A stretch of 64,000 bases of DNA from Candidatus Omnitrophota bacterium (GCA_041649175.1 JBAZNR010000001.1:783497-847496); one strand, 5' to 3'; counted from the stretch's first letter, positions 10,561 to 55,191 are shown. The notes: generated from the sequence alone by a model not told the origin. Translations and numbers: made by a program.

Positions 10561-10600
10561 GAATATCCTTGCCACAATCTTTCCACCTAAGAAATACCGC

Positions 10601-12249: not shown

Positions 12250-13068
12250 GTGGTTAATGCTTTAGGAATTGAAATTACCGAATGGTACCATTTGAACGGT
12301 TTGGATCTTTCCGGTGAAATCAGCCGCGAATATGAAAGCCGGGTTGTTGCCAATACCTTAAACGTTCTTGAGCTATTAAGCGTTATGGAAACAAAGGCGA
12401 CATTTTTTGTTTTGGGCATTATTGCCGAGAAATTTCCTGACTTGGTGGTCCGCATCGAAGACGCCGGCCACGAGATCGCTAGCCATGGTTATCTTTTTAA
12501 AGAACTGCGCGCGCATACGATCGACTCTTTCCGGGAAGATCTAAAAAAATCGATCGCCATTTTGCAAGGCATCTCCAAGAAGCCGGTTGTTGGTTACCGC
12601 GCTCCCGGTTTTTCAATGAACAGCGATTGTCTTTGGGCGATGGACATCTTAAAACAAGAAGGTATTTCTTATGACAGCAGCATTGCTCCGGTTCGTCATC
12701 GGCTTTATGGAATTCCTTCCGCGCCGCGAATTCCATATCACATTCGGGAAGACCTAGTGGAATTTCCTCCTTCCACGGTCCGTATTTTATTCGATCATGT
12801 TCTTTTCTCCGGAGGCGCCGCTTTAAGGGACTTTCCGTATTCCTTAATAAAGCGAACAGTAGAAAACCTGAACGACCAAGGCATTGTTGTTAATTTCTTT
12901 TTAAGGGCTTGGGAGCTGAATCCCTTTTTCTCGAAAGCAAAGATCCCTCTTTCATTTCGTTCGGAATACCTAAACGGATTAGAAAAAACCAAAAAGCGCT
13001 TCGAACAAATTCTAACCGATTTTCAATGCGCGCCTCTTTCAAAGATCATTCAGGATAAGAAGCTTTGA
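12250..13068 (+). CDS. polysaccharide deacetylase family protein (CE4-like)
   Basis: The ALGIEITEWYH N-terminus resembles the xxDVEDWYH pattern of EPS-locus deacetylases. A GTG start at 12250 follows AAAGGA. The track's TTG at 12169 coincides with the -35 box. Confidence 0.55.
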   Translation: MVNALGIEITEWYHLNGLDLSGEISREYESRVVANTLNVLELLSVMETKATFFVLGIIAEKFPDLVVRIEDAGHEIASHGYLFKELRAHTIDSFREDLKKSIAILQGISKKPVVGYRAPGFSMNSDCLWAMDILKQEGISYDSSIAPVRHRLYGIPSAPRIPYHIREDLVEFPPSTVRILFDHVLFSGGAALRDFPYSLIKRTVENLNDQGIVVNFFLRAWELNPFFSKAKIPLSFRSEYLNGLEKTKKRFEQILTDFQCAPLSKIIQDKKL

Positions 13069-13106
13069 GGAAGATATTTTCTCTAAAGCCCTCTTTAGGA
13101 AATTTC

Positions 13107-13136
13107 TTTACAATATTTGCGCCTAAGGGGTATAAT
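13107..13136 (+). promoter_or_regulatory. sigma70-type promoter (TTTACA-18-TATAAT) for hisG
   Basis: The hexamers sit about 95 nt upstream of the hisG ATG. Confidence 0.45.
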
Positions 13137-13234
13137 GCACACCTGTGAAAAGAAGTTGATTTCCGGTGGTTTCTAGTGTATTTTTAATTGCTTTTGTAGT
13201 CCAACACTAACCGATAACAGAAGATAGGGAAGAA

Positions 13235-14110
13235 ATGAAAAAACTCAAGCTTGGTTTACCAAAGGGAAGTTTACAAGCCGCGACCATCAAGGTTTTTGAA
13301 CGGGCGGGCTTTAAGATCTATGTTTCCGAACGTTCCTATTTCCCGCACATTGATGATACCGAGATCGATCCGGTTTTATTGCGCGCGCAAGAAATGTCGC
13401 GTTATGTCGAAGACGGTGTCTTAGATTGCGGCATTACCGGCGAAGATTGGATCTTAGAAAACGGCTCCAAGGTAACTCGTTTAGCCGATCTCATTTATGC
13501 CAAGCAAAGTTCGGTCAAGGTGCGCTGGGTTTTGGCCGTTCCGGAAGATTCCTCCATCAAATCCGTTAAGGACCTGCAAGGTAAGAAAATAGCGACGGAA
13601 CTCGTCAATGTCACAAAGAATTATCTGACAAAAAACAAGGTTAGCGCTGATGTGGAATTTAGCTGGGGTGCGACAGAAGCGAAAGTCGCCTCCGGTTTAG
13701 TTGATGCCGTCGTGGAATTGACCGAAACAGGAAGCAGTTTACGTGCCAATAAGCTGCGCATTGTCACAACTTTGTGCGAATCCACAACGCAGTTTATTGC
13801 TAATTCAAAAGCCATTCAAGACCCCTGGAAGAAAAAGAAGATGGATCAGCTGATCCTGCTTTTAACAGGGGCGATCGCTGCCGATCATATGGTGGGCTTA
13901 AAGATGAATATTGAAGAAAAAAATCTTAAAAAGGTTTTAGCCCTATTGACATCGCTAAAAAATCCTACCATTTCTCATTTGAGCCAGAAAAATTGGCTGG
14001 CGGTTGAAACCGTTATTGATGAAGGAATAGTGCGCGGCCTTATTCTAAAGTTAAAGGAAGCCGGCGCTCAAGGGATCATCGAGTATCCTCTTAATAAGCT
14101 GATCTATTAA
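13235..14110 (+). CDS. hisG: ATP phosphoribosyltransferase, long form
   Basis: LGLPKGSLQ with the GEDW motif region, and the length indicates a C-terminal regulatory domain. Confidence 0.9.
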
Positions 14111-14130
14111 CAAAAAAGGAGTTAAACCTC

Positions 14131-14229
14131 ATGCCTTGCGGAAGAAAAAGAAAGCTTCGTAAAATTCGTACGCATAAACGTAAGAAGCTTCGTAAAGCTC
14201 TTCGCCATTTGAAGAAGCGGGATCATTAA
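14131..14229 (+). CDS. 32-aa lysine/arginine-rich peptide, putative small ribosomal protein (bS22-like)
   Basis: An AAGGAG RBS 9 nt upstream. MPCGRKRKLRKIRTHKRKKLRKALRHLKKRDH resembles bS22-type peptides. Below the track cutoff. Confidence 0.4.
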   Translation: MPCGRKRKLRKIRTHKRKKLRKALRHLKKRDH

Positions 14230-14245
14230 TAAATAAGTAAAATTT

Positions 14246-15247
14246 ATGATGAAACCTTTTCGTCATCAATTGCTTATGGCGTTTGCCGTAAGCATGGTTG
14301 TCTTACTATTGCCTTTAGCTGTTGCTTTGGCACAAGCCAATGCGGATGTCCAATCTCGGGCTTTAAGTATCTCTCATTATATAAAAGGCCTGATGGAAGA
14401 TTGGGTGGGAACGGCGCAAGACGCGGTCGACCATTACAAGAAATCGGCCGAGTTTGACGGAGATAATTATTCCGTCCATTTAAGGCTCGGCGCTGATTAT
14501 GTCCGCCTGGAAAAATTCGACGATGCGATCAAAGAATTTCAGCTTGCCCTTAAGATCAAGCCGGATGATTTTCAATCCCGTTATTTTCTGGCATTTGTTT
14601 ATTCCGCGCGCCAAGAATTTGACAAGGCCGCGACCGAATATGAATTGATCTTAAAAAATCTCGCCAAGGCTGATCCTCAAAATGCGGAAGTCTTAACTTA
14701 TCTTGGGCAACTCTACTATTCCCAGAAGAAATATGACGAAGCGATCGCTCAATACGAAATGATCCTTGCCATGGAGCCTAAAGACGTGGAAACGATCTTT
14801 ATCTTAGGTTCTTTGAACATGGATAGAGGAAAGCGCGTGGAGGCGAAAGAACTTTTCTTAAAAGCCTTAACCATTGACCCCGAACACGCCAACACCTTAA
14901 ATTCTCTCGGCTATTTATATGCGGAAGAAGGGACCAATTTAGATGAGGCGTTGGGATTGATCAAAAAGGCCCTGGAGGCTGATTCGGATAATGGTGCCTA
15001 TTTGGATAGCTTGGGATGGGTTTATTTTAAGAAAGGGATGTATACGGAAGCTTTGGATTTCTTGAATAAAGCCGTTGTCCGCATCAAAGACCCGGTGGTT
15101 TACGAGCATTTAGGCGATGTTTATTTCCAGCTGAACGATAAGACAAAAGCCGAAGAGAATTGGAAACAGGCTTTGGCGCTTTCGCCGGAGCAGGTGAGCA
15201 TTACAAAAAAACTGAACGAGATCAAAGGCGAAACTACCAGTCAGTAA
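14246..15247 (+). CDS. tetratricopeptide (TPR) repeat protein with signal peptide
   Basis: Multiple 34-aa TPR repeats (LG..Y.....A). Confidence 0.7.
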   Translation: MMKPFRHQLLMAFAVSMVVLLLPLAVALAQANADVQSRALSISHYIKGLMEDWVGTAQDAVDHYKKSAEFDGDNYSVHLRLGADYVRLEKFDDAIKEFQLALKIKPDDFQSRYFLAFVYSARQEFDKAATEYELILKNLAKADPQNAEVLTYLGQLYYSQKKYDEAIAQYEMILAMEPKDVETIFILGSLNMDRGKRVEAKELFLKALTIDPEHANTLNSLGYLYAEEGTNLDEALGLIKKALEADSDNGAYLDSLGWVYFKKGMYTEALDFLNKAVVRIKDPVVYEHLGDVYFQLNDKTKAEENWKQALALSPEQVSITKKLNEIKGETTSQ

Positions 15248-15315
15248 TTTTAATAAGATTGTCGCGCGCAGGCTGTTTTTATGTTAATTTTAATTCTACT
15301 CATTTCCCGCCTTCC

Positions 15316-16185
15316 ATGAAAAAAATTTCCTTGAAATCTCCCGCCAAGTTAAATCTTTTGCTAAAGGTCGTCAATAAAAGACTCGACGGATATCACGATC
15401 TTTTAACGGTTTTTGAGCGCATTGATCTATGCGATGAGATTGTTTTTGCCGAAAATAAAAGCGGAGCTATCCGTTTGTTTTGCTCTCATCCTGATATTCC
15501 CAAAGATGAGAAGAATTTGATCATCCAAGTCGCGCAAATCCTTAAAAAAGACTTTTCTGTTCCAAGCGGAGTTAATATTACGCTGAAGAAGAAAATTCCG
15601 GTGGCTGCCGGCTTGGGCGGAGGTTCAAGTAATGCCGCGACAGCCTTGCTGGGGCTTAATAAGCTATGGAAGCTTTCCTTAAAGCCGAAAAAACTTTTAG
15701 AATACGCGAAGAAAGTTGGAAGTGATGTTGCCTTTTTCTTAGCGGAGCAAACTTGGGCTTTGGGAACCGAGCGCGGAGATAAGATAAAACCGCTGAAATT
15801 AAGGGCAAAATTGTGGCATATTTTGATTGTTCCAGAGCTTAAAGTGTATTCAGGGGAAGTATTTAAAGCGCTTCAGCCGCCTAAGATGAATATATTGACA
15901 AAGAAAGATGATGATGTTAATATTCTAACTCGCGCTTTACGGGATAATGACTTGCCTAGAATAGAAGGCCTACTCTCGAATGATTTGGAGACAGCGATCG
16001 TGCAACTCCATCCTAATTTAGTTCCAATGCGGGAAAAAATAAGAGAGTTAACGAAGTCGCGCATCATTTTTTCGGGAAGCGGTCCGGCCCTTTTTGGGTT
16101 GGCTCGTTCTCGTCGGGATGCGGAAAACTTTAAATTTATTCTAAGTAAGTATTTTAAGCGGGTTTTTGCCGTGCGTTCATTCTGA
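15316..16185 (+). CDS. ispE: 4-diphosphocytidyl-2-C-methyl-D-erythritol kinase
   Basis: KLNLLLKV and the GHMP-kinase motif PVAAGLGGGSSNAA. Start at the MKKISLK Met. Confidence 0.85.
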   Translation: MKKISLKSPAKLNLLLKVVNKRLDGYHDLLTVFERIDLCDEIVFAENKSGAIRLFCSHPDIPKDEKNLIIQVAQILKKDFSVPSGVNITLKKKIPVAAGLGGGSSNAATALLGLNKLWKLSLKPKKLLEYAKKVGSDVAFFLAEQTWALGTERGDKIKPLKLRAKLWHILIVPELKVYSGEVFKALQPPKMNILTKKDDDVNILTRALRDNDLPRIEGLLSNDLETAIVQLHPNLVPMREKIRELTKSRIIFSGSGPALFGLARSRRDAENFKFILSKYFKRVFAVRSF

Positions 16186-16203
16186 AAAAGAGGGGGCGGG
16201 CTT

Positions 16204-16629
16204 ATGGAGATCACGGAGATCAGGGTATTCTTAAAAGAAGGCCAGGATAAGAAACTCAAAGCCTACGCGACGGTCACCTTCGACAGTGTTTTTGTTGTGC
16301 GCAACATCAAGGTTATTCAGGGAGCCGCGAACCTTTTTATCGCGATGCCGTCGAGGAAAACGAAAAATCCGTGTCCCAAATGCGGTTTTAAAAATGAAGC
16401 CGGAAGCAGGTTTTGCAGTCATTGTGCGGCCTCATTACCTGCGCATGAAAAACCTCCGGTAAGCGCCGTTGATATCGATTCAAAATCTGAACATCGGGAT
16501 ATTGCTCATCCCGTGACGCAGCAATTTCGCGAATATTTGCAAAACAAGATATTAGAAGCTTATAAGAAAGAAATCGGCAAATCTGTCAGCAAGCCGGCAA
16601 CTTCGTCATCCGATATCGAAGACGAGTAA
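16204..16629 (+). CDS. spoVG: SpoVG family protein with a ~40-aa Cys4 zinc-ribbon insertion
   Basis: Canonical MEITEIRVF...ANLFIAMPSRKT and RDIAHP blocks. They are interrupted by CPKCGFKNEAGSRFCSHC. Confidence 0.8.
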   Translation: MEITEIRVFLKEGQDKKLKAYATVTFDSVFVVRNIKVIQGAANLFIAMPSRKTKNPCPKCGFKNEAGSRFCSHCAASLPAHEKPPVSAVDIDSKSEHRDIAHPVTQQFREYLQNKILEAYKKEIGKSVSKPATSSSDIEDE

Positions 16630-16637
16630 AGCACTGC

Positions 16638-16708
16638 TGCCCGGTGGTGTAATGGTAACACACGAGAATTTGGATCTCGTTTTCCAGGTTCGAGTCCTGG
16701 CTGGGCAA
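16638..16708 (+). tRNA. tRNA-Gln (anticodon UUG)
   Basis: Cloverleaf folded by hand. Acceptor TGCCCGG/CTGGGCA with the U1:A72 pair typical of bacterial tRNA-Gln, anticodon loop ATTTGGA, T-arm CCAGG-TTCGAGT-CCTGG, and no encoded CCA. Confidence 0.75.
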
Positions 16709-16725
16709 CTTTAGCGCTAAAATTT

Positions 16726-17985
16726 ATGAACGACTTGAAAGTTATAATCCTGGCCGCCGGAAAAGGTGTGCGGATGAATTCCGACACTCCCAAGGTCCTT
16801 CATAAAGTTTGCGGCAAAACGATCATTGAGCATGTTTTAGATTTAGCAGTTTCGGTAGGTTCTTTGAAAACGTATGTTGTGGTTGGTCATCAGGCAAGCC
16901 AAGTGAAGGATTTTTTAGGGAAAAACATCGCTGTTGTGGTCCAGAAAAAGCTTTTAGGAACGGCCGATGCCGTTAAGGCAGCGTCAAAAGGGTTAAAGAA
17001 TTTTAACGGCGATTGTTTGATCGTTTGCGGTGACACGCCGCTTCTTCGCAAAGAAACCGTGCTCAAACTCATTAAGCGCCATAAAGTTTCAAAGGCGGCC
17101 TGCACGGTTTTAACAGCGATCGTTAAGGACCCCAAAGGTTACGGCAGGATCGTTCGTGACGGGAATAATAATATCGTCGGGATACGCGAAGAAAAGGATG
17201 CCACGGTTTCCGAACAAAATATCAAAGAGATCAATGTCGGCACGTATTGTTTTAAGTCATCGGAATTGCTGAGTGGTTTATCGGCCATTAAGATGAACAC
17301 GAAGAAAAAAGAATTTTATTTAACGGACATCGTTGCTTTGTTAAGTCAAAAAAGTAAGCGAGTTGATTTTGTGACGACAGATGACGCGTCAGAGGGTTTT
17401 GGCATTAATGATCGTGAAGATCTAGCGGCAGCGCAGGATTGTTTGCGCCAAAGGATTTTAAAGGAATTCATGCGGCAAGGCGTTACCATCGTTGACCCCG
17501 CGACGACATTTATCGATCAGGATGTTAAGATCGGCCGCGATACAACGATCAAACCTTTTACCGTCATTGAAAGCCATGTGCGCATTGGCAAGAATTGCAT
17601 CATTGGGCCGTTTTGCCATCTTCGGCCGGATACAACGATCGCTGATCATACGGAAGTGGGGAATTTCACAGAAGTGTCCCGTTCTCGTATCGGAAAAGAT
17701 TGCTTTATGAAACATTTTAGCTTTTTAGGTGATGCGATGGTGGGAAATCGGGTGAATATTGGCGCCGGTGTTGTGACGGCCAATTTTGACGGAAAGAATA
17801 AAAATGCGACACATATTCACGACGACGCTTTTATCGGTTCAGATTCTATTTTAGTCGCTCCGGTTGTTATCGGAAAGAAAAGTGCTACGGGAGCGGGCTG
17901 TGTTTTAACCAAGGGAAAGAAAGTTCCCGCTGGCTATGTTGCCGCCGGAGTTCCGGCGAGAATAACATCGAAAAGAAAATTTTAA
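16726..17985 (+). CDS. glmU: bifunctional UDP-N-acetylglucosamine pyrophosphorylase / glucosamine-1-phosphate N-acetyltransferase
   Basis: The LAAGKGVRM nucleotidyltransferase motif plus C-terminal hexapeptide repeats. Confidence 0.85.
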   Translation: MNDLKVIILAAGKGVRMNSDTPKVLHKVCGKTIIEHVLDLAVSVGSLKTYVVVGHQASQVKDFLGKNIAVVVQKKLLGTADAVKAASKGLKNFNGDCLIVCGDTPLLRKETVLKLIKRHKVSKAACTVLTAIVKDPKGYGRIVRDGNNNIVGIREEKDATVSEQNIKEINVGTYCFKSSELLSGLSAIKMNTKKKEFYLTDIVALLSQKSKRVDFVTTDDASEGFGINDREDLAAAQDCLRQRILKEFMRQGVTIVDPATTFIDQDVKIGRDTTIKPFTVIESHVRIGKNCIIGPFCHLRPDTTIADHTEVGNFTEVSRSRIGKDCFMKHFSFLGDAMVGNRVNIGAGVVTANFDGKNKNATHIHDDAFIGSDSILVAPVVIGKKSATGAGCVLTKGKKVPAGYVAAGVPARITSKRKF

Positions 17986-17997
17986 CGGAGAGTCCTC

Positions 17998-18948
17998 ATG
18001 AACAATTTGGCTGTTTTTTCAGGAAATTCTAATCCGCAGTTAGCGCAAGAGATCTGTCATGAGCTTAGCATTCCCTTGACGGAGGTCTTTGTCTCGCGCT
18101 TTAGTGAAGGCGAAATTAGAGTCCAGATCAAAGAGAACATTCGCGGTAAAGACGTTTTCATCGTGCAGCCGACTTGTCCGCCAGTCAATGAAAGCTTGAT
18201 GGAGCTTTTGATCTTGATCGACGCTGCTAAACGCGCTTCGGCCCAAAGAATTACCGCTGTTTTGCCTTATTATGGTTATGCCCGGCAAGACAGAAAAGAT
18301 CAACCGCGCGTTCCGATCACGGCAAAACTCGTTGCCAATTTAATTGTTGCCGCCGGCGTTGACAGAGTTCTAACGATGGACTTGCACGCCAGCCAGATCC
18401 AAGGATTTTTTGATATTCCCGTCGATCATTTATATGCTATTAATACTTTGTGCGATTATTTTGCCAAAAAGAAATTGGATAATTTGATTGTTGTCTCTCC
18501 TGATGTCGGCGGAATTAAAATGGCGCGCGCCTATGCCAAATGGTTAGGTTGCGGGCTTGCCATCGTTGATAAACGCCGCGACAGCCCGGAAAAAGTGGAA
18601 GCCATGCACATTTTGGGAAAAGTAAAAGGCAAACGTGTTATTATCGTTGATGATATTATCGCAACCGCAAATTCTATGATCGAGGCCATTGAAACCTTGG
18701 ATAAAAAAGGCGTTATAGAAGTGTACGCGGCCGTAAGCCATGGTATTCTTTCCGGAAGCGCGCTTCCGCGTATTCATCAGTGCAAACCTTTAAAAGAAGT
18801 TGTGATCACTAATAGTATTCCGTTCAAGGAAGTAAAGAAGTATCCGAAGATCAAGGCGCTTTCGGTCGCACCGCTTTTGGCCGAAGCTATTAAACGTATT
18901 CACAGCGAGGAATCCGTTAGTTCATTATTCGACTCAATCAGAAAGTAG
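17998..18948 (+). CDS. prs: ribose-phosphate pyrophosphokinase
   Basis: A PRPP synthetase N-terminal domain and the PRTase motif VIIVDDIIAT. Confidence 0.9.
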   Translation: MNNLAVFSGNSNPQLAQEICHELSIPLTEVFVSRFSEGEIRVQIKENIRGKDVFIVQPTCPPVNESLMELLILIDAAKRASAQRITAVLPYYGYARQDRKDQPRVPITAKLVANLIVAAGVDRVLTMDLHASQIQGFFDIPVDHLYAINTLCDYFAKKKLDNLIVVSPDVGGIKMARAYAKWLGCGLAIVDKRRDSPEKVEAMHILGKVKGKRVIIVDDIIATANSMIEAIETLDKKGVIEVYAAVSHGILSGSALPRIHQCKPLKEVVITNSIPFKEVKKYPKIKALSVAPLLAEAIKRIHSEESVSSLFDSIRK

Positions 18949-18957
18949 GAAGGGGCT

Positions 18958-19692
18958 ATGCAAGAAATCACACTAGAGGCACATGTACGAACTGCGATCG
19001 GGACAAGAAAAACAAAACAACTTCGTCGGGAAGATTTTATTCCGGCGGTTGTGTATGGTGAACGGAAGAAAACCGTTGCCATTCAGCTAGACCGAAAAAC
19101 CTTTGAACGCATCGAGCGGCTTCATCATGGGGAAAACATCATCTTGAGCTTAAACGTTATTGATGATGATAAAAAGGTCAAAGATTATTCGGCGATCGTT
19201 AAAGATACCCAGCGCGATCCTGTTTCGGGGCGCATTTTACATCTCGATCTGCATCACATTTCCTTGACCAAAGAAATTGAGGTTAAGGTCCCTATCGTTG
19301 CCAAGGGCGAGCCGGTCGGTGTCAAACAAGACGGCGGTTCTTTGGACCATCTTTTGTGGGAATTAGGCGTTATCTGTTTACCCACCAAGATCCCTCATCA
19401 CATCGAAGTCGATGTCAGTAGTTTAAAGATTAAAGATGTTATTCATGTTAAAGATATTGCGTTACCGGAAGGGGTCAAAACAAAACAAGATCCCGATACG
19501 ATCGTGTTTGCGGTTGTTCCTCCGATGAAAGAAGTGACACCTGAAGAAGCTGCTGCGGCCGCGACACAAGCTGAGCCGGAAGTTCTTAAAGAGAAGAAAG
19601 AAGATCCAGCCGCTGCGAAAACAGCTGCCGGTGATAAAGAGAAAAAGCCCGCGGAAGAAAAGCCTAAGGCCGAAAAATCAGAAGGTAAATAA
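18958..19692 (+). CDS. rplY: ribosomal protein L25 / general stress protein Ctc with a lysine/glutamate-rich C-terminal tail
   Basis: An L25 fold N-terminus (RKTKQLRREDFIPAVVYG) and an acidic/basic tail. Confidence 0.8.
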   Translation: MQEITLEAHVRTAIGTRKTKQLRREDFIPAVVYGERKKTVAIQLDRKTFERIERLHHGENIILSLNVIDDDKKVKDYSAIVKDTQRDPVSGRILHLDLHHISLTKEIEVKVPIVAKGEPVGVKQDGGSLDHLLWELGVICLPTKIPHHIEVDVSSLKIKDVIHVKDIALPEGVKTKQDPDTIVFAVVPPMKEVTPEEAAAAATQAEPEVLKEKKEDPAAAKTAAGDKEKKPAEEKPKAEKSEGK

Positions 19693-19697
19693 AATTA

Positions 19698-20279
19698 GTG
19701 TCCGCTCGTCTTGTTATTGGTTTAGGCAATCCCGGCAAAGAATATGAAGATACGCGGCATAATTTAGGTTTTCGCGTTGTTACAAAATTAGCCGAGAAAT
19801 ACGAAGCACGGTTCGCGAAAAGCGTTCTTTTAAAAGGTTCTCTGGCTAAAGGTGAAACACAGCAAGGCAAAGCTTATTTTTTTATGCCGTTGACGTATAT
19901 GAACAATTCAGGTATTGCTGTTACCAAAGCTGTTCATTGGCGCAATGTTGCTCTTGAAGATATTTTGGTTGTTTGCGATGATCTTAATCTTGATTTTGGA
20001 AAAATTCGCCTACGCCTTCAAGGCAGTGACGGCGGACACAATGGCCTGCGTTCTATCAAGGAGCATCTTAAGACGAATGAATTTGCTCGTCTGCGTTTAG
20101 GGATCGGCGGGCCGTCAAACAAGGGCGAGACAGCCGAATTTGTTCTTTCCAAATTTACCAGCGAAGAAAAAAAAGGGTTGAAAGATTTTGTCGACCAAGC
20201 CGTCGACTGTTGTAGTTTGTGGCTAGAAGGACATGTTAATCAAGCGATGAATCAATTTAACAAAAAGGGAGAGCGATGA
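19698..20279 (+). CDS. pth: peptidyl-tRNA hydrolase
   Basis: The LVIGLGNPG...TRHN signature, with a GTG start. Confidence 0.85.
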   Translation: MSARLVIGLGNPGKEYEDTRHNLGFRVVTKLAEKYEARFAKSVLLKGSLAKGETQQGKAYFFMPLTYMNNSGIAVTKAVHWRNVALEDILVVCDDLNLDFGKIRLRLQGSDGGHNGLRSIKEHLKTNEFARLRLGIGGPSNKGETAEFVLSKFTSEEKKGLKDFVDQAVDCCSLWLEGHVNQAMNQFNKKGER

Positions 20280-46507: not shown

Positions 46508-47475
46508 TCACCGAAACAAATATTGCGTATAGTCCGGTCGTAAAACGTTTTGCTGAATTTATAAAAAATAAACGTTTAGCGCACGCCTATCTTTTTATCG
46601 GGCCGGCATCATCCGGGAAAACCATTACAGCTTTTACGATCGCGAAATTAGTCAATTGCGAGAACCCTAAAGCAGGCGCGCCATGCGAGGCGTGCGCGTC
46701 GTGCGTTAAGATCGCAAACGGCAATCATCCCGATGTGCATTTTGTCAGCTCCGAAGATAATACATCGATAAAAATAGAACAAATTCGCGATATGATCAAT
46801 AAGATCCAGCTTAGGCCCTTTGAAGCTGAGAAGAAAGTATTTATTATTAAGAATGCCGAACAATTAACGCTGGAAGCGGCCAACGCGCTTTTAAAAACTT
46901 TAGAGGAACCGTCAGCAAATAGCCTTATTATTTTGACGACCGCGTCTTCGGAAAAGAATTTAGACACCATTAAATCCCGATGCCAGATCATCCATTTTTC
47001 GCTCTCTACGCCTAAGGACCTAGAAGAGCATTTGTGCAAACGCGCCGGCTTAGATAAACAAAGCGCGCACTTTTTAGCGTATTTCACGGAAGGGTCTTTG
47101 GGGAAGGCAAATCGTATGGACAGCCAAATGATCTTAAAACAAAAAAATGCCATTATTGATTTCTTCTTAGATCCGGAAAGCTCGCCTAATGATTTGCGCC
47201 TTATCCTAAGCGATAAAGAAAAGACCAAAGAAGCATTAAAAGTTGTTTTAACCTGGTTTCGTGATATCCTTTTCATCAAAATGGGGATCGCTCAGATCCG
47301 TCTCATTAACACAGATCGCCTTGATGACCTTAAGCGCTTAGTCTCTGTCTATTCCGTCGAAGAACTTAACATCATCTTGCAGGAATTCTCAAAAATGATC
47401 GAGCTTTCGGAAGATAATTTCAATATTAAAATCGCTTTAGCCATTACAAAGGAGCGGCTATGTCCAAGATCATAG
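46504..47475 (+). CDS. holB: DNA polymerase III delta-prime subunit
   Basis: An AAA+ clamp-loader fold (GPASSGK, a C-x2-C-x2-C zinc motif CEACASC), downstream of tmk. Confidence 0.75.
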   Translation: MITETNIAYSPVVKRFAEFIKNKRLAHAYLFIGPASSGKTITAFTIAKLVNCENPKAGAPCEACASCVKIANGNHPDVHFVSSEDNTSIKIEQIRDMINKIQLRPFEAEKKVFIIKNAEQLTLEAANALLKTLEEPSANSLIILTTASSEKNLDTIKSRCQIIHFSLSTPKDLEEHLCKRAGLDKQSAHFLAYFTEGSLGKANRMDSQMILKQKNAIIDFFLDPESSPNDLRLILSDKEKTKEALKVVLTWFRDILFIKMGIAQIRLINTDRLDDLKRLVSVYSVEELNIILQEFSKMIELSEDNFNIKIALAITKERLCPRS

Positions 47476-48257
47476 AGGTTAAGATCGGTGAATTTCGTCC
47501 CGTTGTTTTCTTTGAGTGCGGGGAGGTATCTGTTCGTTATGGGGATTATGTAATCGTGGAAGTTGACCGCGGTATGGAATATGGGCAGATGGTCAGCGAA
47601 GATCTCATCAAGGCAGAAATTAAGCCGGAAAATATCGAAGGAAAGATTTTGCGCATTGCCACCGTGCAAGACTTGTTGCAGGTCGAGGATAATCGCAAAA
47701 AAGCCAAAGAGGCGCTTAAAACCTGTACGGCTAAGATCGAAGAAAGCAAAGTGGAGATGCAAATAACCCAATGCGAATATTCTTTTGACGGCAGTAAGAT
47801 CATTTTCTTTTTTACGGCCGAAGGCAGAGTGGATTTTCGCGAACTAGTCAAAGATCTCGCTAAGATATTTCGCGTACGTATCGAATTAAAACAAATTGGT
47901 GTGCGCGATAAAGCAAGGATCGTCGGAGGATACGGGATTTGCGGGCGGGAATTCTGCTGTTCATCGTATATGAAAGATTTTCACCCCCTAACGATCAAGA
48001 TGTCAAAAGATCAAAATCTTCCTTTAAATCCATCCAGAATTTCGGGCGTTTGCGGGCGTATCAAATGCTGTATGGCGTATGAATTTTCCGTTTACCGCGA
48101 ATATGCTAAAGACCTGCCTCGAGTGGGAGAAAAAATAACCACACCGCAAGGCAAGGGGAGAGTCATTGATATTAATATTTTAAAACGATACGCTTTGGTG
48201 GATGTGGGCGAAGGCCAAGTCTCTAAGATATTTTTCAATAAACATAATGACAACTAA
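47460..48257 (+). CDS. PSP1 C-terminal domain protein (YaaT/RicT-like)
   Basis: The PSP1 region (VRIELKQIG...CGRE-C) and a Firmicutes-like position after holB. Confidence 0.7.
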   Translation: MSKIIEVKIGEFRPVVFFECGEVSVRYGDYVIVEVDRGMEYGQMVSEDLIKAEIKPENIEGKILRIATVQDLLQVEDNRKKAKEALKTCTAKIEESKVEMQITQCEYSFDGSKIIFFFTAEGRVDFRELVKDLAKIFRVRIELKQIGVRDKARIVGGYGICGREFCCSSYMKDFHPLTIKMSKDQNLPLNPSRISGVCGRIKCCMAYEFSVYREYAKDLPRVGEKITTPQGKGRVIDINILKRYALVDVGEGQVSKIFFNKHNDN

Positions 48258-49770
48258 AAAGTTCTACGTTTCAACACCGATCTACTATGTCAATGATCAG
48301 CCGCATATCGGCCATGCCTATACGACGATTCTCGCGGATTGTCTGTCGCGCTATCATAAGGCGGCGGGCGATGAGGTTTTTTTCTTAACGGGGCTTGATG
48401 AGCACGGCCAAAAAGTGCAATCGGCCGCCGAGAAAAAAGGATTATTGCCGCAAGCCCACGTCGATGAAATGGCGCCGCGCTTTCTCGAATTATGGGAAAG
48501 GCTCGGCATACAATATTCTGATTTTATCCGCACCACCCAAAGCCGCCACAAGCAAGTTGTCCAGGACTGCTTAAAACAAATTTATGACAAAGGCGATATT
48601 TATACGGACGAATACGAAGGATGGTATTCGGTCGCCGAAGAACGTTTTATAACGGAAGAAGAAAATAGGTCAGGCAAGTTTCGGGAAGTCAAAAAGCTTA
48701 AAGAAAAGAATTATTTCTTTAAGATGAGTAAATATCAAAAACAGCTTCAGGAACATATCGAAAAAAATCCCGGATTTATAGCACCCGATCATCGGCGTAA
48801 TGAAATTTTAGGTTTTTTGCGCCAGCCTTTAGGGGATTTGTGTATTTCGCGTCCCAAATCACGCCTTAACTGGGGCATTGAAATTCCCTTCGATCAAGAT
48901 TATGTCACTTACGTTTGGTTTGACGCTTTGGTCAATTATATCTCGGCAATTGGTTTTGGCAGTGATGATAAAAAGTTTCAAAAATGGTGGCCGGTGGATG
49001 TGCATTTAATAGGTAAGGATATTCTTACCACCCATTCGGTGTATTGGTCGACGATGTTATTGTCGCTGGGCGTTGCTCTTCCCAAAAAGATATTCGCTCA
49101 TGGTTGGTGGATGACGGGGGAAGCGAAGATGAGCAAATCCTTAGGTAATGTGGTCAGCCCCTTAGATTTGATCGAACAGCATGGCGTTGACGCGGTGCGT
49201 TATTATTTAATGAAAGAAATGATTTTAGGAAATGACGCTAATTTTACGCCGGAAAGTTTTATCAAATGTTACAATTCGGACCTTGCGAATGATTTTGGCA
49301 ATCTGTTGAACCGAGTGAGTGGGCTTATTAATAAACTTTTTGAAGGGAAAATTCCGGATCAGGGAAAAATAGGGGCGGCCGACGAAGAAATAAAGAAAGC
49401 CGCCCAATCATTATTTCCTGAAACTCAAAAACTTATTGATGAATTAAAAGTGCAGGAAGCCATTGAAGCAACATTGCAGTTGGTGCGAATGGTCAATAAA
49501 TACGTGGAGTCTCAAGCCCCTTGGAAAGTTGCTAAAACTGACCTTACGCGCGCCGGAACCATTCTTTATACGGCAACCGAAGCTTTAAGAATTAGCGCGG
49601 TTTTGCTTACGCCCGTCATGCCTTCAAAGTGCAAAATCGTTTTAGAAGTGTTGGGCGCCCCCGACGAATCAACTCAATGGGGCGCCCTCGTTCCCGGTAC
49701 AAAATTAAAACTTCATGAAGCACTGTTTCCGAGACTGGAAACAAAGAATAATGAAAATCCTAAATCCTAA
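48247..49770 (+). CDS. metG: methionyl-tRNA synthetase (short form, no C-terminal tRNA-binding domain)
   Basis: TPIYYVNDQPHIGH and KMSKSLGN class I motifs. The start at MTTKKFY overlaps the previous gene's end; an alternative in-frame upstream start is at 48202. Confidence 0.85.
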   Translation: MTTKKFYVSTPIYYVNDQPHIGHAYTTILADCLSRYHKAAGDEVFFLTGLDEHGQKVQSAAEKKGLLPQAHVDEMAPRFLELWERLGIQYSDFIRTTQSRHKQVVQDCLKQIYDKGDIYTDEYEGWYSVAEERFITEEENRSGKFREVKKLKEKNYFFKMSKYQKQLQEHIEKNPGFIAPDHRRNEILGFLRQPLGDLCISRPKSRLNWGIEIPFDQDYVTYVWFDALVNYISAIGFGSDDKKFQKWWPVDVHLIGKDILTTHSVYWSTMLLSLGVALPKKIFAHGWWMTGEAKMSKSLGNVVSPLDLIEQHGVDAVRYYLMKEMILGNDANFTPESFIKCYNSDLANDFGNLLNRVSGLINKLFEGKIPDQGKIGAADEEIKKAAQSLFPETQKLIDELKVQEAIEATLQLVRMVNKYVESQAPWKVAKTDLTRAGTILYTATEALRISAVLLTPVMPSKCKIVLEVLGAPDESTQWGALVPGTKLKLHEALFPRLETKNNENPKS

Positions 49771-49892
49771 TATCGAAACCTTAAACAAATTCAAAATCAG
49801 AAATCCGAATGTTCAAAACACTAGTTTTGGATTTATGTCATTTGAATTTTGATATTGTTTAGAATTTAGAGTTTAGTGTTTAGGATTTTTTC
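49754..49892. repeat. AT-rich nested imperfect palindrome / AATCCTAA-TTAGGATT repeat element, between metG and the next gene
   Basis: Outer arms gaaaatcctaaa (49754-65) / tttaggatttttt (49879-91). Inner arms aaattcaaaatcagaaatccgaa (49787-809) / ttttggatttatgtcatttgaatttt (49825-50). Confidence 0.5.
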
Positions 49893-49925
49893 GAACTTAA
49901 CATTTAATCTAACATAAGGAACAAT

Positions 49926-50489
49926 ATGAAGAAAACCGTTAAGCGTAAAGTTGCTGTTCGTAAAGCCCCTGAAACTGCCGCGCCAAAAGCCGCTCCCAAG
50001 GTCGCGCCGGATGTCGCGGATCTGATGTATAAGATAGAACAGCATTTGACCTTTTTAGAAAAAAAGATCGATACTCTCATCAATCAATCTTCGCAAAGGC
50101 CGGCTGAAGTAAAGAGTTTTCCAAAGCCCTTCTTGCCTTTTAACCGTCCTTCTCATAGCGAGTCTTTTAGCCGCCCTTCTCATGGGGAGCATTTTGACCG
50201 CCCTCGCCATGGAGGAGGCAGAGAAGAGAATAGCTTTAGAGAAAGAAGTATGACCCGGGCGATTTGCGCGGATTGCAAACAAGAATGCGAAGTGCCTTTT
50301 AAGCCCACCGGTGAGCGCCCTGTTTACTGCAAGGAATGTTTTTCAAAGCGTAAAGACGCCGGAACGTTTTCAGGCCGCCGCGATCATGAGCATAAAGGGC
50401 ATCGACGAGAAGATTTTTCTCACACAACGCATTCCCATAAACACGAAGGTGGCCCCGTCCGTAAACACGGAAAAAGAGGGAAGTATTAA
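49926..50489 (+). CDS. lysine/alanine-rich protein with RPxH tandem repeats and a CxxC-x17-CxxC zinc ribbon; function unknown (possibly nucleic-acid binding)
   Basis: An AAGGAA RBS. It contains KRKVAVRKAPETAAPKAAPKVAP, a run of FNRPSHSESFSRPSHGEHFDRPRHGG, and CADCKQEC...CKEC. Confidence 0.6.
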   Translation: MKKTVKRKVAVRKAPETAAPKAAPKVAPDVADLMYKIEQHLTFLEKKIDTLINQSSQRPAEVKSFPKPFLPFNRPSHSESFSRPSHGEHFDRPRHGGGREENSFRERSMTRAICADCKQECEVPFKPTGERPVYCKECFSKRKDAGTFSGRRDHEHKGHRREDFSHTTHSHKHEGGPVRKHGKRGKY

Positions 50490-50502
50490 AAAGGTACGTG
50501 TC
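50487..50502 (+). repeat. direct repeat copy 1 (taaaaaggtacgtgtc), with an adjacent GTGTCTTTGG box
   Basis: Identical 16-mer to 50868-50883. Confidence 0.7.
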
Positions 50503-50525
50503 TTTGGAAGCTGAAAGGAGAACGA

Positions 50526-50855
50526 ATGAGATTATTCGTAATTTTACCGGTATTGATATTATCTGGCTGTGCTACGGCAAACGTCGCAAATATCCCCGGC
50601 AATACCCAAGCAAACAATCGCCTTAAAGCTGATATTGTTAATATGATTAACATGGTTGAACGTGCTCAAGCTCCCCATTGCCGCTATCAGATTATAGATA
50701 CAAAAGTTACAGGCGTTGTTGGCGACACAGTGACCGAAGAGTGGACTGTTGAAAGTTGTGGGAAAAATATTATTTATCCGGTTGAATTAACTCCTGATCC
50801 AAAGGGCGGAACATTTTTCGGCATTCAAACTCCGGATAAAAAGGACAGGGAGTAA
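50526..50855 (+). CDS. small lipoprotein (lipobox LILSGC), function unknown
   Basis: A signal peptide plus the lipobox Cys, 109 aa. An AAAGGAG RBS. Confidence 0.6.
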   Translation: MRLFVILPVLILSGCATANVANIPGNTQANNRLKADIVNMINMVERAQAPHCRYQIIDTKVTGVVGDTVTEEWTVESCGKNIIYPVELTPDPKGGTFFGIQTPDKKDRE

Positions 50856-50867
50856 GGAAAAGTTTAG

Positions 50868-50914
50868 TAAAAAGGTACGTGTCCCCGGGAGCTCTGCGGG
50901 GCGGGTGTCCCCGG
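50868..50914 (+). repeat. direct repeat copy 2 (taaaaaggtacgtgtc) plus two GTGTCCCCGG boxes 16 bp apart
   Basis: 16-mer at 50868-83. 10-mers at 50879-88 and 50905-14. Confidence 0.7.
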
Positions 50915-50963
50915 AATTCTGGGATTACACCGGAAAGATTAATTTTACAAAAAGGCGTGCTTA

Positions 50964-51779
50964 ATGTTTGATATAACAAAAATTATTCCAGAAGTAATTT
51001 TGGGTACAATAATTGGTTCACTAATTACATTATTGGGTGTTTGGCTCAATAATAGCGGTGCTCTTAAGCGGCTTAAGGTCCAGCTAGATAATGAAACTGT
51101 GCAAAGGATACGAGAGCGTGAGTACAATATTAAAAAGGAGATATATTTAAGAGCTGTTGAAGAATTGGCTATGGTAAAAAATTTTATTCTAAAACTACCT
51201 AACTTAGATCTAAATGTTTTTAATGACCAAAATTTTCAAAATATTTCTTCTGGTATTTCTAAAATCCCCGTTGTTGCAAACATAGATACAATCAAAGTTA
51301 TTACTAACCTAAATATGTATATTTCAAAATCAATTTTTAGCCTATTTCCTGACAAATTACCTATTGAAGATTTAAGAATAAGAATCAATATTTTGTCAAC
51401 ACAAATGGATAATTGTTCAAAAAAAAGAGACATTTTTATTAATGAAATGACTATTGCAAATTTGAAGGGAAATTATGACCAGGCATACTGGGAGAAATTG
51501 AAAAGTAACAATGATTTTTATACCCAAGAATTCGATAAATTATTCTTAGAGCGAACAAAAAATTACCATGAATTAAATTCTCTTATTAAGCGTTTCTCAA
51601 GCAAATGTTTTGCTGCAATAGTCGGCATGGTGGATTTAGAAACAGAGGCCATTTCTTGTATAAGAAGCGAACTAAGCATGGATTGTGATATTGATGACTA
51701 TAAGAGTTCCATCAAGCGATCTATGCAGGAAGCTGAAGCAGAATTAAATAAGTTTCTTATAAGCATGCCAACGGAATAG
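50964..51779 (+). CDS. hypothetical 271-aa N-terminally membrane-anchored protein, AT-rich gene with no recognisable family
   Basis: A TM helix (IIPEVILGTIIGSLITLLGVWL), then a long N/K/I-rich helical region. GC is clearly lower than in the flanking genes. Confidence 0.55.
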   Translation: MFDITKIIPEVILGTIIGSLITLLGVWLNNSGALKRLKVQLDNETVQRIREREYNIKKEIYLRAVEELAMVKNFILKLPNLDLNVFNDQNFQNISSGISKIPVVANIDTIKVITNLNMYISKSIFSLFPDKLPIEDLRIRINILSTQMDNCSKKRDIFINEMTIANLKGNYDQAYWEKLKSNNDFYTQEFDKLFLERTKNYHELNSLIKRFSSKCFAAIVGMVDLETEAISCIRSELSMDCDIDDYKSSIKRSMQEAEAELNKFLISMPTE

Positions 51780-51851
51780 GGAGCTCCAAGGGCCAAAAAT
51801 TTAATTAGACGAATTAAGCAATGTATTGCCGGAATTTAATAAGGAGGCGAC

Positions 51852-52055
51852 ATGATTAAACGAGTGTGGGCAGTCTTAGTTCGAATTTCTGCAATGCAAT
51901 GGTTTAAGAATTTTATTAATTATGGTTTGCCAATTTTGCTGTGTTTAATTGGATTTGTTGAGTATACACATATACGACCGATAAATATTGTTTCTGAAGA
52001 TCTTGGAGTAATTGGGATTTATAGTACTGATTTTGGCTTAAGGATAGCAAATTAA
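51852..52055 (+). CDS. hypothetical 67-aa single-TM protein
   Basis: An AGGAGG RBS 5 nt before the ATG. A hydrophobic helix GLPILLCLIGFV. AT-rich. Confidence 0.45.
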   Translation: MIKRVWAVLVRISAMQWFKNFINYGLPILLCLIGFVEYTHIRPINIVSEDLGVIGIYSTDFGLRIAN

Positions 52056-52088
52056 GAAAAGAATAATTTAGACCGCTTCTAAATAATT

Positions 52089-53123
52089 ATGCCTATCCAA
52101 ACAATCAAATGGAAAAATAATTCCATTCGAATTATCGACCAACGAAAGCTTCCGCTTGAATATAAAGTGATGACGTGCCGCAACATAAAAGATGTTTGTC
52201 GGGCGATTAAAACCTTAAGCGTGCGCGGCGCACCGGCTATTGGCGTTGCGGCGGCTTTCGGCGTTTTTTTAGGCGTTAAAGATCTTAACGCCAAAAGCCG
52301 CCGGGAGTTTGAAAAGAAATTCTCTAAAGTTTGTGATTATATCGGCAGTTCGCGCCCCACCGCGGTAAATTTATTTAATGCTTTAGAAAGAATGAAAAAA
52401 GTTTTGGCTCTGCATCCGCAAGTCGATACAGAGCAACTAAAGAAACTTTTGCTTAAAGAAGCGTTCGCTATTTTTAACGAAGATAAGATTTCCTGCCGGA
52501 AAATGGGTGATTTTGGCGCGCGGCTTATTAAAAATAATAGCCGCCTTCTAACCATCTGTAACGCCGGCGCTTTGGCAACGGTTGATTATGGAACAGCTTT
52601 GGGTGTTATGTACAGCGCGAAAAAAGCGGGAAAAAAATTTAGCGTTTATGCCTGCGAAACCAGACCGCTATTGCAAGGAGCGCGATTAACCGCCTGGGAA
52701 TTAACCAAAGCGAAGATCCCGACGACTCTTATCTGTGACAATATGGCGGCAACAGTTATCAAGCAAAAAAGAATTGATGCGATATTTACCGGAGCCGATC
52801 GCATTGCCGCTAACGGAGATACGGCCAACAAGATCGGAACATATAATTTAGCTATTTTAGCAAAATATCATAAAGTTCCTTTTTATGTGGTGGCGCCTTT
52901 CTCGACATTCGATCTTTCTATTGCAAGCGGCCGGCAAATCCCAATCGAAGAGCGCCACGAAGATGAAGTCACGCATATTGCCGGGCGGCGTGTGGCTGCT
53001 TTCGGCGTTAAAGTTTTTAATCCCGCTTTTGATGTGACCGATCATAATCTTATCACGGCCATTATTACTGAGCGTGGCATTATCCGTCCTTCGTTTAAGA
53101 AAAATATAAAAAAACTCTCATAA
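52089..53123 (+). CDS. mtnA: methylthioribose-1-phosphate isomerase (eIF-2B alpha/beta/delta-like family)
   Basis: An e2B2-family pattern (IKTLSVRGAPAIGVAAAFG, CETRPLLQGARLT, GADRIAANGDTANKIGTY). Confidence 0.75.
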   Translation: MPIQTIKWKNNSIRIIDQRKLPLEYKVMTCRNIKDVCRAIKTLSVRGAPAIGVAAAFGVFLGVKDLNAKSRREFEKKFSKVCDYIGSSRPTAVNLFNALERMKKVLALHPQVDTEQLKKLLLKEAFAIFNEDKISCRKMGDFGARLIKNNSRLLTICNAGALATVDYGTALGVMYSAKKAGKKFSVYACETRPLLQGARLTAWELTKAKIPTTLICDNMAATVIKQKRIDAIFTGADRIAANGDTANKIGTYNLAILAKYHKVPFYVVAPFSTFDLSIASGRQIPIEERHEDEVTHIAGRRVAAFGVKVFNPAFDVTDHNLITAIITERGIIRPSFKKNIKKLS

Positions 53124-53124
53124 A

Positions 53125-54048
53125 ATGATCCGCCTTAAGAAAACAAGATTAAAAGATGTCGGCGAATTTGGATTTATTGAATTGGCCGCCAAAATACTTT
53201 CCTCTCCGGTCAAAAATGTCATTAAAGGAATAGGTGATGACGCGGCCGTTTTGGATATTGGACGCAAAGAACTTCTTTTGCTAACGACTGATATGTTGGT
53301 GGAAGGAGTTCACTTTACTCGCTCGATGAACGCGCGATCGATCGGACATAAATCTTTGGCGTGCAATATCAGCGATATCGCGGCGATGGGAGGAATTCCA
53401 AGCTGCGCGGTTATTTCTCTTGGTGTGCCGCCGAATTTAAATTTGCGGTTTGTCCAAGAACTTTATCAAGGTATCAATCGCTTGGCGAAAAAATTTTCCG
53501 TTTCCATTGTCGGCGGCGATACGGTGAAAAGCGCAAAAATAGTCATCAACATTGCACTTTTAGGAAATGTTTTTAAAGAAAACCTTTTGTTGCGCTGTGG
53601 CGCCAAAAAGGGGAACCGAATTTTTGTCAGTGGGCCTTTAGGAAAATCATTCGTAACAAAAAAACATTTACGTTTTACGCCTAAAGTTGACGCGGCGCAG
53701 TATCTGGCTCGTGAGTTTAAACCGACATCTATGATCGATATTTCCGACGGGCTTTGCGGAGACTTGGGCCATATTTTAAAGGAAAGTAGTGTTGGGGCGG
53801 TCATTTATGAAAAACTTATTCCGAAAACAAAAGGTGCTACTTTAAATAATGCTTTATACGATGGGGAAGATTTCGAGCTCCTTTTTACTTTATCATCCCA
53901 AGAGGCCAATCAGCTTATTCGAATGAAGAAAAACAGATTTCCTTTTTGGTATATTGGGGATATTGTTGACGAAAAAGAAAAGTTAACGATTGTGAGCGGA
54001 TCCGGGAAGCGAATCGCATTAAAGCCAAAAAGTTTCTCTCACTTCTAA
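53125..54048 (+). CDS. thiL: thiamine-monophosphate kinase
   Basis: An AIR-synthase-like fold (GDDAAVLD...LLLTTDMLVEGVHF). Confidence 0.7.
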   Translation: MIRLKKTRLKDVGEFGFIELAAKILSSPVKNVIKGIGDDAAVLDIGRKELLLLTTDMLVEGVHFTRSMNARSIGHKSLACNISDIAAMGGIPSCAVISLGVPPNLNLRFVQELYQGINRLAKKFSVSIVGGDTVKSAKIVINIALLGNVFKENLLLRCGAKKGNRIFVSGPLGKSFVTKKHLRFTPKVDAAQYLAREFKPTSMIDISDGLCGDLGHILKESSVGAVIYEKLIPKTKGATLNNALYDGEDFELLFTLSSQEANQLIRMKKNRFPFWYIGDIVDEKEKLTIVSGSGKRIALKPKSFSHF

Positions 54049-54049
54049 T

Positions 54050-54514
54050 ATGAGAACTACCAAAATCATTTCAGAAAACGCGAAGCAAACAGTTGAGCTG
54101 GGCAAGCGCTTAGCCAGATGCCTTAAGAAAGGCGATATTATTTGTCTTTTTGGAGACTTGGGAAGCGGAAAAACAACTTTCACTAAAGGGATTGCGCAGG
54201 GCCTTTGCGTTTCTAAAAATTCTGTGAACAGCCCGACATTTGTTCTGCTAAATATTCATAAAGGCCGATTGCCTTTATTCCATTTTGATCTTTATCGCTT
54301 GGATAATATTGATGAGATTTTGATGATCGGTTACGAAGAATTCTTTTACGGCGAAGGAGTTTCTATCGTCGAATGGGCCGAAAAGTTAAAGAAATTGCTA
54401 CCGGAAAATCATTTAAGCGTTAAAATCTCTTTAAAAAAGAACAATCAAAGGCTTATTCAAATATCCGCGCGGGGAAGCCGTTACCAAGAATTGTTGAAAG
54501 AATTTATCAAATGA
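54050..54514 (+). CDS. tsaE: tRNA threonylcarbamoyladenosine biosynthesis protein TsaE
   Basis: The P-loop GDLGSGKTTFTKG. Confidence 0.8.
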   Translation: MRTTKIISENAKQTVELGKRLARCLKKGDIICLFGDLGSGKTTFTKGIAQGLCVSKNSVNSPTFVLLNIHKGRLPLFHFDLYRLDNIDEILMIGYEEFFYGEGVSIVEWAEKLKKLLPENHLSVKISLKKNNQRLIQISARGSRYQELLKEFIK

Positions 54515-55191
54515 ATATCTTAAGCCTCGAAACATCAACCAAGAATTTCAGTATAGCGGTTTTAAAAGATCAGAAAATCATTTTTGAGCGAAACATGAAG
54601 CTTAAAGATGTTTTATCTTCATCTATTCTGCCGGCAATTATCCAGGTTTTGACAAAATCGAAAATGAGTTTAGCGCGCCTTGATGGTTTTGCCGTGGGCT
54701 TAGGCCCGGGGTCGTTCACCAGTTTACGGGTTGGCCTATCGACTGTTAAAGGCTTAGCATTCGCGACCAAAAAGCCGATCGCGGGCATTTCCAGCTTAGA
54801 TATTTTGGCGATGAATGTTCCGGAAAAATATACACAGCAGATCTGTACGTTATGCGATGCGAAGCGTAATTTATTCTATTGTTGTTTTTATGAAAAGCAA
54901 AACGGCCTTTTGAAGCGAAAAACCGATTATCTTCTGCTTGACCGGGAAAGTATTCAGCAAAAAATTAACAAAAGGACCGTTCTTTTAGGAGATGGTGTTA
55001 AAATATGGCAAGAAGAACCCGAAGCAGGCGACAGGGACAATTTTCAGTATTTAGACGAGAAATATTGGCATCCCAAGGCAAGCCATTTGGCTTATTTAGC
55101 CGCTGAACGATTTAAAAAGAAAAAGTATGATTTGGCTTCAAAAATAGTTCCCATTTATCTTTATGCGGATGATTGCCAGGTACAAAAATGA
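54511..55191 (+). CDS. tsaB: tRNA threonylcarbamoyladenosine biosynthesis protein TsaB (inactive Kae1/YeaZ homolog)
   Basis: An ASKHA fold N-terminus (ILSLETSTKNFSIAV, GLGPGSFTSLRVG). Confidence 0.75.
   Translation: MNILSLETSTKNFSIAVLKDQKIIFERNMKLKDVLSSSILPAIIQVLTKSKMSLARLDGFAVGLGPGSFTSLRVGLSTVKGLAFATKKPIAGISSLDILAMNVPEKYTQQICTLCDAKRNLFYCCFYEKQNGLLKRKTDYLLLDRESIQQKINKRTVLLGDGVKIWQEEPEAGDRDNFQYLDEKYWHPKASHLAYLAAERFKKKKYDLASKIVPIYLYADDCQVQK

Follow-up and report, generated by a model that had tools for sequence, protein, structure and literature searches.

Downstream of metG in a Candidatus Omnitrophota genome, a lipoprotein gene is bracketed by two short direct repeats, each accompanied by a GTGTCYYYGG box. 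A preliminary description had offered two specific readings for them, attachment-site-like duplications marking an insertion boundary or an operator/promoter motif shared by the lipoprotein gene and the AT-rich genes that follow. We asked whether either reading holds or whether the repeats belong to a known class of dispersed elements. The window analysed is the whole stretch of 64 kb, and positions are counted from its first nucleotide.

Repeat copies and boxes downstream of metG

The exact 16-mer TAAAAAGGTACGTGTC was found at 50487-50502 and 50868-50883, both times in full and in a short intergenic spacer. The 64-kb window contained no further exact copy, the next best site having three mismatches. 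The first copy opens with the TAA stop codon of the zinc-ribbon ORF and the second starts 12 nt 3' of the lipoprotein stop codon (50853-50855). The duplication, its position at the zinc-ribbon stop codon and the bracketing of the 109-aa lipoprotein gene were thus borne out as first described. Alignment of the two sites, designated w1 and w2, covered 29 nt with 24 identical positions, the differences including three adjacent C-to-T changes (CCC vs TTT). Start to start the two units are 381 nt apart with exactly one gene between them, and the 3' end of w1 lies about 4-8 nt 5' of the lipoprotein ribosome-binding site. The three GTGTCYYYGG boxes already described were recovered at 50498, 50879 and 50905, the second and third being separated by 16 nt. 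Another match, at 39219, is intragenic, and the four matches in the window compare with 0.43 expected. The coordinates of all features are given in Table 1.

Table 1. Genes and repeat units of the metG-mtnA interval (window coordinates)
Feature	Position	Strand	Sequence and remarks
Zinc-ribbon protein gene	49926..50489	+	CxxC-x17-CxxC, PF23477; stop codon inside w1
Repeat unit w1	50484..50512	+	TATTAAAAAGGTACGTGTCTTTGGAAGCT; overlaps zinc-ribbon TAA stop
109-aa lipoprotein gene	50526..50855	+	bracketed by w1 and w2; no Pfam family
Repeat unit w2	50865..50893	+	TAGTAAAAAGGTACGTGTCCCCGGGAGCT; 24/29 identical to w1
Imperfect palindrome	50904..50931	+	GGTGTCCCCGGAATTCTGGGATTACACC; box 3 paired with degenerate inverted partner
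Box 3 and AATT	50905..50918	+	GTGTCCCCGGAATT; exact copy of commonest right half of 25-nt TIR unit
AT-rich segment	50964..52055	+	orf271 50964-51779, orf67 51852-52055
Degenerate full TIR unit	51812..51836	+	AATTAAGCAATGTATTGCCGGAATT; spacer orf271/orf67; 20/25 vs canonical 25-mer

The spacer 50856-50963 holds a cluster of units, and all units of the window are extragenic. Exact-repeat, mismatch and 25-mer searches of the 64 kb all confined the units to this one locus. The sequence GGGAGCTC, found 3' of box 2 (50887-50894), recurs directly after the orf271 stop codon (51780-51787) and may be part of a local repeat unit or due to chance.

Taken by itself, the exact 16-mer repeat carries little weight. 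The window contains five independent exact direct-repeat pairs of at least 16 nt, this pair included, and shuffled sequences average 2.7 repeated 16-mers, so that a 16-mer and a few short boxes might simply have coincided in low-complexity spacers. Such a coincidence is nevertheless very unlikely, since a local pair within 500 nt occurred in only 2.7% of second-order shuffles, the similarity of w1 and w2 extends to 24/29, independent matches to an external repeat family fall within the same 1.4 kb and the subtype of the window is also present in another genome, L003.

Gene content of the metG-mtnA interval

The genes of the locus all lie on the plus strand in the order holB, PSP1, metG, zinc-ribbon, lipoprotein, orf271, orf67, mtnA, thiL, tsaE, tsaB and alr. 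The G+C content of orf271, which encodes a predicted membrane protein, and of orf67 is 26-31% vs 43% for the genome, while that of the lipoprotein gene is the genome's own; by its appearance the orf271/orf67 segment looks like a recently acquired one. Pfam and PADLOC searches with the lipoprotein, orf271 and orf67 gave no match for any of the three.

The exact proteins of the window (zinc-ribbon and lipoprotein locus) were found in the source genome only, and the best database homologues were 52% (zinc-ribbon), 66% (lipoprotein) and 76% (MetG) identical. In the closest MetG relatives the upstream synteny is kept (radA ... cysS, tmk, holB, PSP1, metG). Downstream of metG, L098 carries a single 220-aa ORF followed by mtnA (8515-9533), vs four ORFs between metG and mtnA in the window (49771-52088); L094 carries an AbiEii/HTH/MazG/LexA/Dcm-Vsr-EcoRII defence-type island (9964-19758) and L096 a zinc ribbon and a DEAD helicase (11503 onward). 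Because the downstream content differs in this way among the closest relatives, the metG-mtnA interval was considered a hotspot of gene turnover. The same divergence leaves no alignable empty site, and in the junction comparison no relative was close enough to provide one (best identities 52% for the zinc-ribbon protein and 76% for MetG). No synteny was shared among 80 zinc-ribbon loci from GTDB.

A long imperfect hairpin (49753-49890; -40.4 kcal/mol, z -5.3, 0/200 shuffles) covers the metG stop codon together with the spacer 5' of the zinc-ribbon gene. Its 3' arm is made of TTTAGRR heptad repeats, and heptads very similar to TTTAGRR are located directly 5' of the lipoprotein homologue in L007 (1770-1790).

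A 25-nt repeat unit in metagenomes

A metagenome scan for AATTARGTAWTGTGTCCCC gave at least 169 copies in at least 120 loci (656 kb; L099-L218). The repeated unit is 25 nt long and has the form AATTAAGTATTGTGTCCCC-NNAAYT, the 19-mer AATTAAGTATTGTGTCCCC being nearly invariant in these at least 169 copies (e.g. L107 3131-3177, L167 5117-5160 and the whole contig L099). Among the matches listed, contig GC ranged from 34 to 70%, the extended consensus was ...CCCC-NNAAYT with an abrupt stop of conservation on the left, and the right extension read GGAATT in at least 34 copies and AGAATT and TTAATT in at least 15 copies each.

Among the matches listed, the copies lie between genes, where they form inverted or direct pairs or are partly reiterated. 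At least 23 inverted pairs have their GGGG ends outward, with spacers of -4 to 781 nt; there are at least 22 direct pairs, those flanking one or a few genes being common, and at least 4 facing pairs, and at least 28 copies are followed by reiterated right halves, e.g. GTGTCCCCGGAATTT. Copies of the same genome have 15-80 nt of element-specific sequence in common on the AATT side, and L099 contains a mini-element of 78 nt whose inverted ends are perfect over 20 nt. Many copies lie 4-30 nt past the stop codon of a converging housekeeping gene and some provide the stop codon themselves (…FRGHNT*). The left halves of the family are variable, and GTACT-GTGTCCCC is present in some of them (L184, L018). 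Tandem reiterations of the right half only, consisting of GTGTCCCC and a lineage-specific tail, were observed in L159 (1499-1570), L143, L160, L176 (2513-2660) and L184 (6200-6330).

A search of the searchable literature for the 19-mer AATTAAGTATTGTGTCCCC gave no match, and no literature text on this family in Omnitrophota or on the 25-nt consensus was found. An Rfam scan of ten canonical loci returned nothing relevant, and no Rfam family covers the 19-mer.

Association of the unit with Y1 transposases

Inverted units bracket a 222-aa ORF in L171 (819 bp) and a 225-aa ORF in L124 (747 bp). Both ORFs match Pfam Y1_Tnp PF01797 (6e-12 and 1e-10, respectively) and the PDB entry 4ER8, the E. coli TnpA-REP structure (4e-7). 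Their best NCBIfam model is the REP-associated tyrosine transposase, with 55 and 76 bits, both below its equivalog cut-off of 80 bits. Homologues directly adjoin the motif in at least 12 loci. In the 64-kb window, a tblastn search detected no TIRYT (Y1_Tnp) gene. An 807-bp element of L100 (4796-5602) has canonical inverted TIRs and a PilZ-domain passenger gene and carries no transposase.

Passages in Di Nocera et al. (2013; PMC3733652) and Quentin et al. (2018; PMC6006769) describe RAYT-like TIRYT genes that encode REP-related Y1/HUH tyrosine transposases and are flanked by TIRs with the common signature GGGGWSAS ('TIRtrons'). According to the same passages, TIR families are moderately abundant and form dimers or clusters, and most REP repeats are located 3' of genes. 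Among the closest known systems are the TIRs of TIRYT elements, which correspond to subclass 2.1 TnpA-REP in Quentin et al. (2018; PMC6006769).

The GGGGWSAS signature is present in the window (GGGGACAC on the minus strand), the units of the window and of the family are extragenic, near stop codons and arranged as solos, dimers and clusters, and the canonical relatives flank Y1_Tnp genes of about 220 aa, all of which resembles the TIRs of TIRYT genes. Unlike these, the window has no TIRYT gene, its units are solo, direct and partly decayed, and the local left half is A-rich GGTAC instead of AATTAAGTATT.

With the REP/REPIN repeats of RAYT genes (TnpA-REP, 4ER8) the family shares short extragenic repeats tied to a Y1/HUH transposase, inverted doublets that form hairpins and a bias to the 3' side of genes. 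In passages of Di Nocera et al. (PMC3733652) a REP is defined as a palindromic unit of 20-40 nt with a GTAG or CGTC tag; the single units of the window are neither palindromic nor tagged in this way and by that definition are not REPs. Classic REPs are moreover species-specific and very abundant, whereas the 19-mer hardly varies between contigs whose GC ranges from 34 to 70% and the units of the 64-kb window are found at one locus only.

The likeness to IS200/IS605 elements consists of the Y1 HUH transposase (PF01797), small non-autonomous derivatives and the lack of a target-site duplication. However, the ends of IS200/IS605 are subterminal hairpins and not terminal inverted repeats, and the TIR-flanked ORFs scored far lower with the NCBIfam IS200 model than with the REP-transposase model.

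Relation of the window repeats to the family

Read on the opposite strand, the core GTGTCCCC at 50879 and 50905 gives GGGGACAC, in agreement with GGGGWSAS. The signature is absent from w1 (AAAGACAC) and from the 51812-51836 unit (GGCAATAC); w1 (GTGTCTTT) lacks it because CTTT takes the place of the CCCC in the family core. On their sequences, both units may be read as decayed copies.

The canonical 25-mer was aligned to both strands of all 64 kb, with 20 shuffles as control. The best site of the window was 51812-51836 (20/25), with a score of 15 vs a shuffle maximum of 13, and 50905-50918 was the sole exact match to the canonical right half (14/14), a reiterated half-unit of the kind present at canonical loci. 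Taken alone, w2 reached 17/25 with one gap, a score of 8 that is not significant; its assignment to the family was based on the GTGTCCCCGG core, its neighbours and the intermediates found in L003. Both w1 and w2 have this core in common with box 3, located 16 nt downstream, a layout typical of canonical loci. They were placed in the family because of the core, their length of 29 nt, which is approximately that of one family unit (25 nt), the variability of the left halves and the L003 subtype.

Among relatives, units of the AATTAAGTATTGTGTCCCC type occur in spacers of L003, L006 and L026; the last, an Omnitrophota MAG, has AATTAAGTATTGTGTCCCC between two Fic genes and was the only positive in a regular-expression and HMM scan of the 80 zinc-ribbon loci. 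L003 also carries the subtype of the window, A-rich plus CGTGTCCCC, at two separate and unrelated intergenic spacers, which include an exact GTACGTGTCCCC 12-mer 1 nt 3' of a stop codon. In this genome AAAAATAAAGTACGTGTCCCC starts 1 nt past a TGA stop codon in the spacer that separates a transporter gene from a pseudouridine-synthase gene, and ATAAAAAGCGCGTGTCCCCAGAATT is located after the lipoprotein gene pair. In the L003 segment 4893-4977, the called GTG start (4905) of the pseudouridine-synthase gene lies inside a TIR-type unit; since the conserved S4 domain begins at a later GTG (4978), the call is probably 24 codons too long.

In our view the 16-mer repeats and the GTGTCYYYGG boxes probably descend from a short TIRYT-derived extragenic repeat, of which they represent full, partial and decayed copies. 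They are most likely worn end copies of TIRYT/RAYT-type elements and as such a fairly ordinary feature. TIRYT elements are mobile elements of small size, and RAYT/TnpA-REP is a relative of their Y1/HUH tyrosine transposase. We infer the spread of the unit by a Y1 transposase from the analogy to IS200/IS605 and REP/RAYT; the enzyme would recognise the TIR and bring solo units and mini-elements bounded by TIRs to spacers between genes, often directly 3' of stop codons. In the variable metG-mtnA interval, each of three successive spacers contains a unit in the same orientation, and w1 and w2 would represent a local subtype (A-rich, GGTAC and GTGTCCCC), which would account for their 16-nt identity. 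Since the units of the window are all solo or half units and w1 has no GGGG, they are probably relics that no longer move and affect transcripts incidentally at most.

For the source genome this would mean decayed mobile-element ends in a variable region and not a regulatory or attachment signal, and there would be little reason to devote EMSA or pull-down effort to the repeats of the window. The assignment also places TIRYT-type repeats in Omnitrophota and extends the published 8-nt GGGGWSAS to a 25-nt unit that hardly varies among contigs of widely differing G+C. This unit may serve as an annotation marker and aid the study of DNA recognition by a little-studied transposase class.

Attachment sites and gene insertion

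The preliminary description was right to connect the locus with mobile DNA, in that the metG-mtnA interval is variable and a region of gene insertion. Neither of its specific readings was upheld. As in islands bounded by attL and attR, direct repeats bracket a segment in a variable region. Unlike in such islands, there is no integrase or transposase nearby, the bracketed gene is not compositionally foreign, and a unit of the same kind is present at unrelated intergenic sites in L003. The 29-nt repeat is about as long as the 25-nt unit, and direct pairs are common in the TIR family. The preliminary description had itself named frequent occurrence at unrelated intergenic sites as evidence against its proposal; the unrelated L003 sites and the many metagenome copies (at least 169) are therefore such evidence.

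An insertion of attachment-site-like or cassette-like character was also considered, in which recombination at a TIR-type unit already present downstream of the zinc-ribbon gene brought in the lipoprotein gene with its ribosome-binding site and duplicated the unit of about 29 nt, the two copies being the junctions of one insertion. The bracketing of exactly one gene, with 381 nt start to start, and the turnover of genes in the metG-mtnA interval are consistent with it, as is the L100 element, in which TIRs bound a passenger gene. Homologues of the lipoprotein gene are found in unrelated gene contexts in other genomes; of seven, three have TIR units at a distance of about 600 nt or less. The spacers adjoining the homologues in L006 and L003 contain AATTAAGTAATGTGTCCCCCGGAATT, AATTAGGTATTGTGTCCCCGGG and AATTAAGTATTGTGTTCCCGGAAC, in both orientations. 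This proximity to the lipoprotein homologue exceeds a random spread over the sparse background, which amounts to no TIR-type unit in about 60 kb of the metG loci of the closest relatives and a single one among roughly 40 zinc-ribbon loci of Omnitrophota, and it counts against the assignment to scattered TIRYT-derived repeats.

We nonetheless regard such an insertion as rather unlikely. The motif is absent from 4 of the 7 homologue loci, the composition of the lipoprotein gene is the genome's own G+C, and the passenger elements of the family have inverted and not direct ends. No recombinase was found among the ORFs of 47000-55000, nor in a Pfam scan of the five ORFs of 49926-53120. Single-strand transposition of the IS200/IS605 type is known to leave no target duplication. 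The position of the third unit within the AT-rich part suggests that a unit is simply present in every spacer. The lipoprotein gene as an obligate TIR passenger was rejected, the same 4 of 7 homologue loci being without the motif.

In a more general form, TIR units could act as portable recombination junctions at which promoterless genes (lipoprotein, orf271 and orf67) were captured stepwise downstream of metG. This would explain the units near the lipoprotein family in 3 of 7 genomes, the bracketing of a single gene and passenger elements of the L100 type; if true, it would amount to a cassette-like gene capture driven by a Y1 tyrosine transposase and not by an integron integrase. We give it a slim chance. 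The small ORFs in the same orientation, the short spacers with related imperfect repeats and the variable region resemble integron cassettes, but there are no RYYYAAC/GTTRRRY core sites and no IntI integrase, and none of the spacers forms a single attC-type palindrome.

Compared with their generally known forms, the integron attC, the CRISPR repeat and the Tn3-type inverted repeat were rejected on sequence and spacing, as were the NrdR box and the promoter of single-subunit RNA polymerases.

Regulatory role of the repeats

The shared motif could also be a regulatory site for the lipoprotein gene and the AT-rich genes, perhaps recruited from a TIR; the forms considered were an operator of a DNA-binding protein, a promoter element, a terminator and an RNA-stability hairpin. 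The arrangement agrees with such a role, as the three units of the window are all 5' of a start codon and in the same orientation, w1 lies about 4-8 nt and the 51812-51836 unit 7-8 nt 5' of a ribosome-binding site, and there is a weak terminator-like site at 50917-50935. Effects of REP-type repeats on termination and mRNA stability are described in passages of Di Nocera et al. (PMC3733652). On the other hand, no sigma-70-like or other promoter-like match was found over the motif, and the counts of promoters and terminators in the region did not exceed those of shuffles. The fold of the spacer was not significant (z -1.2), no Rfam family matched, and members of the family stand in both orientations next to unrelated genes. 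An Rfam scan of the window locus gave no relevant match and a tRNA scan no gene near the locus. There is thus no positive support for a regulatory role, to which we assign a low probability, and the operator/promoter shared by the lipoprotein gene and the AT-rich genes, as originally put forward, was abandoned in favour of decayed TIRYT-derived repeats.

Related sequences in plasmids and viruses

In scans of viral sequences the window-type pattern gave chance coding matches only. BLAST of the canonical hairpin against plasmids and phages found only a variant unit in a Thiodictyon plasmid. This plasmid, pTs485 of Ca. Thiodictyon syntrophicum (L223), carries variant units ATTAAGTATACTGTCCCCGGAATT at 202488-202511 and about 201891, in unannotated spacers; as it is gammaproteobacterial, the family extends beyond Omnitrophota. 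The canonical pattern gave one real palindrome in the viral scan, at 7530-7590 of L090, an IMG/VR contig classed as viral, where the perfect palindrome GGGGACACAATACTTAATT-N5-AATTAAGTATTGTGTCCC has an LRR protein gene on one side and a 1384-aa gene on the other.
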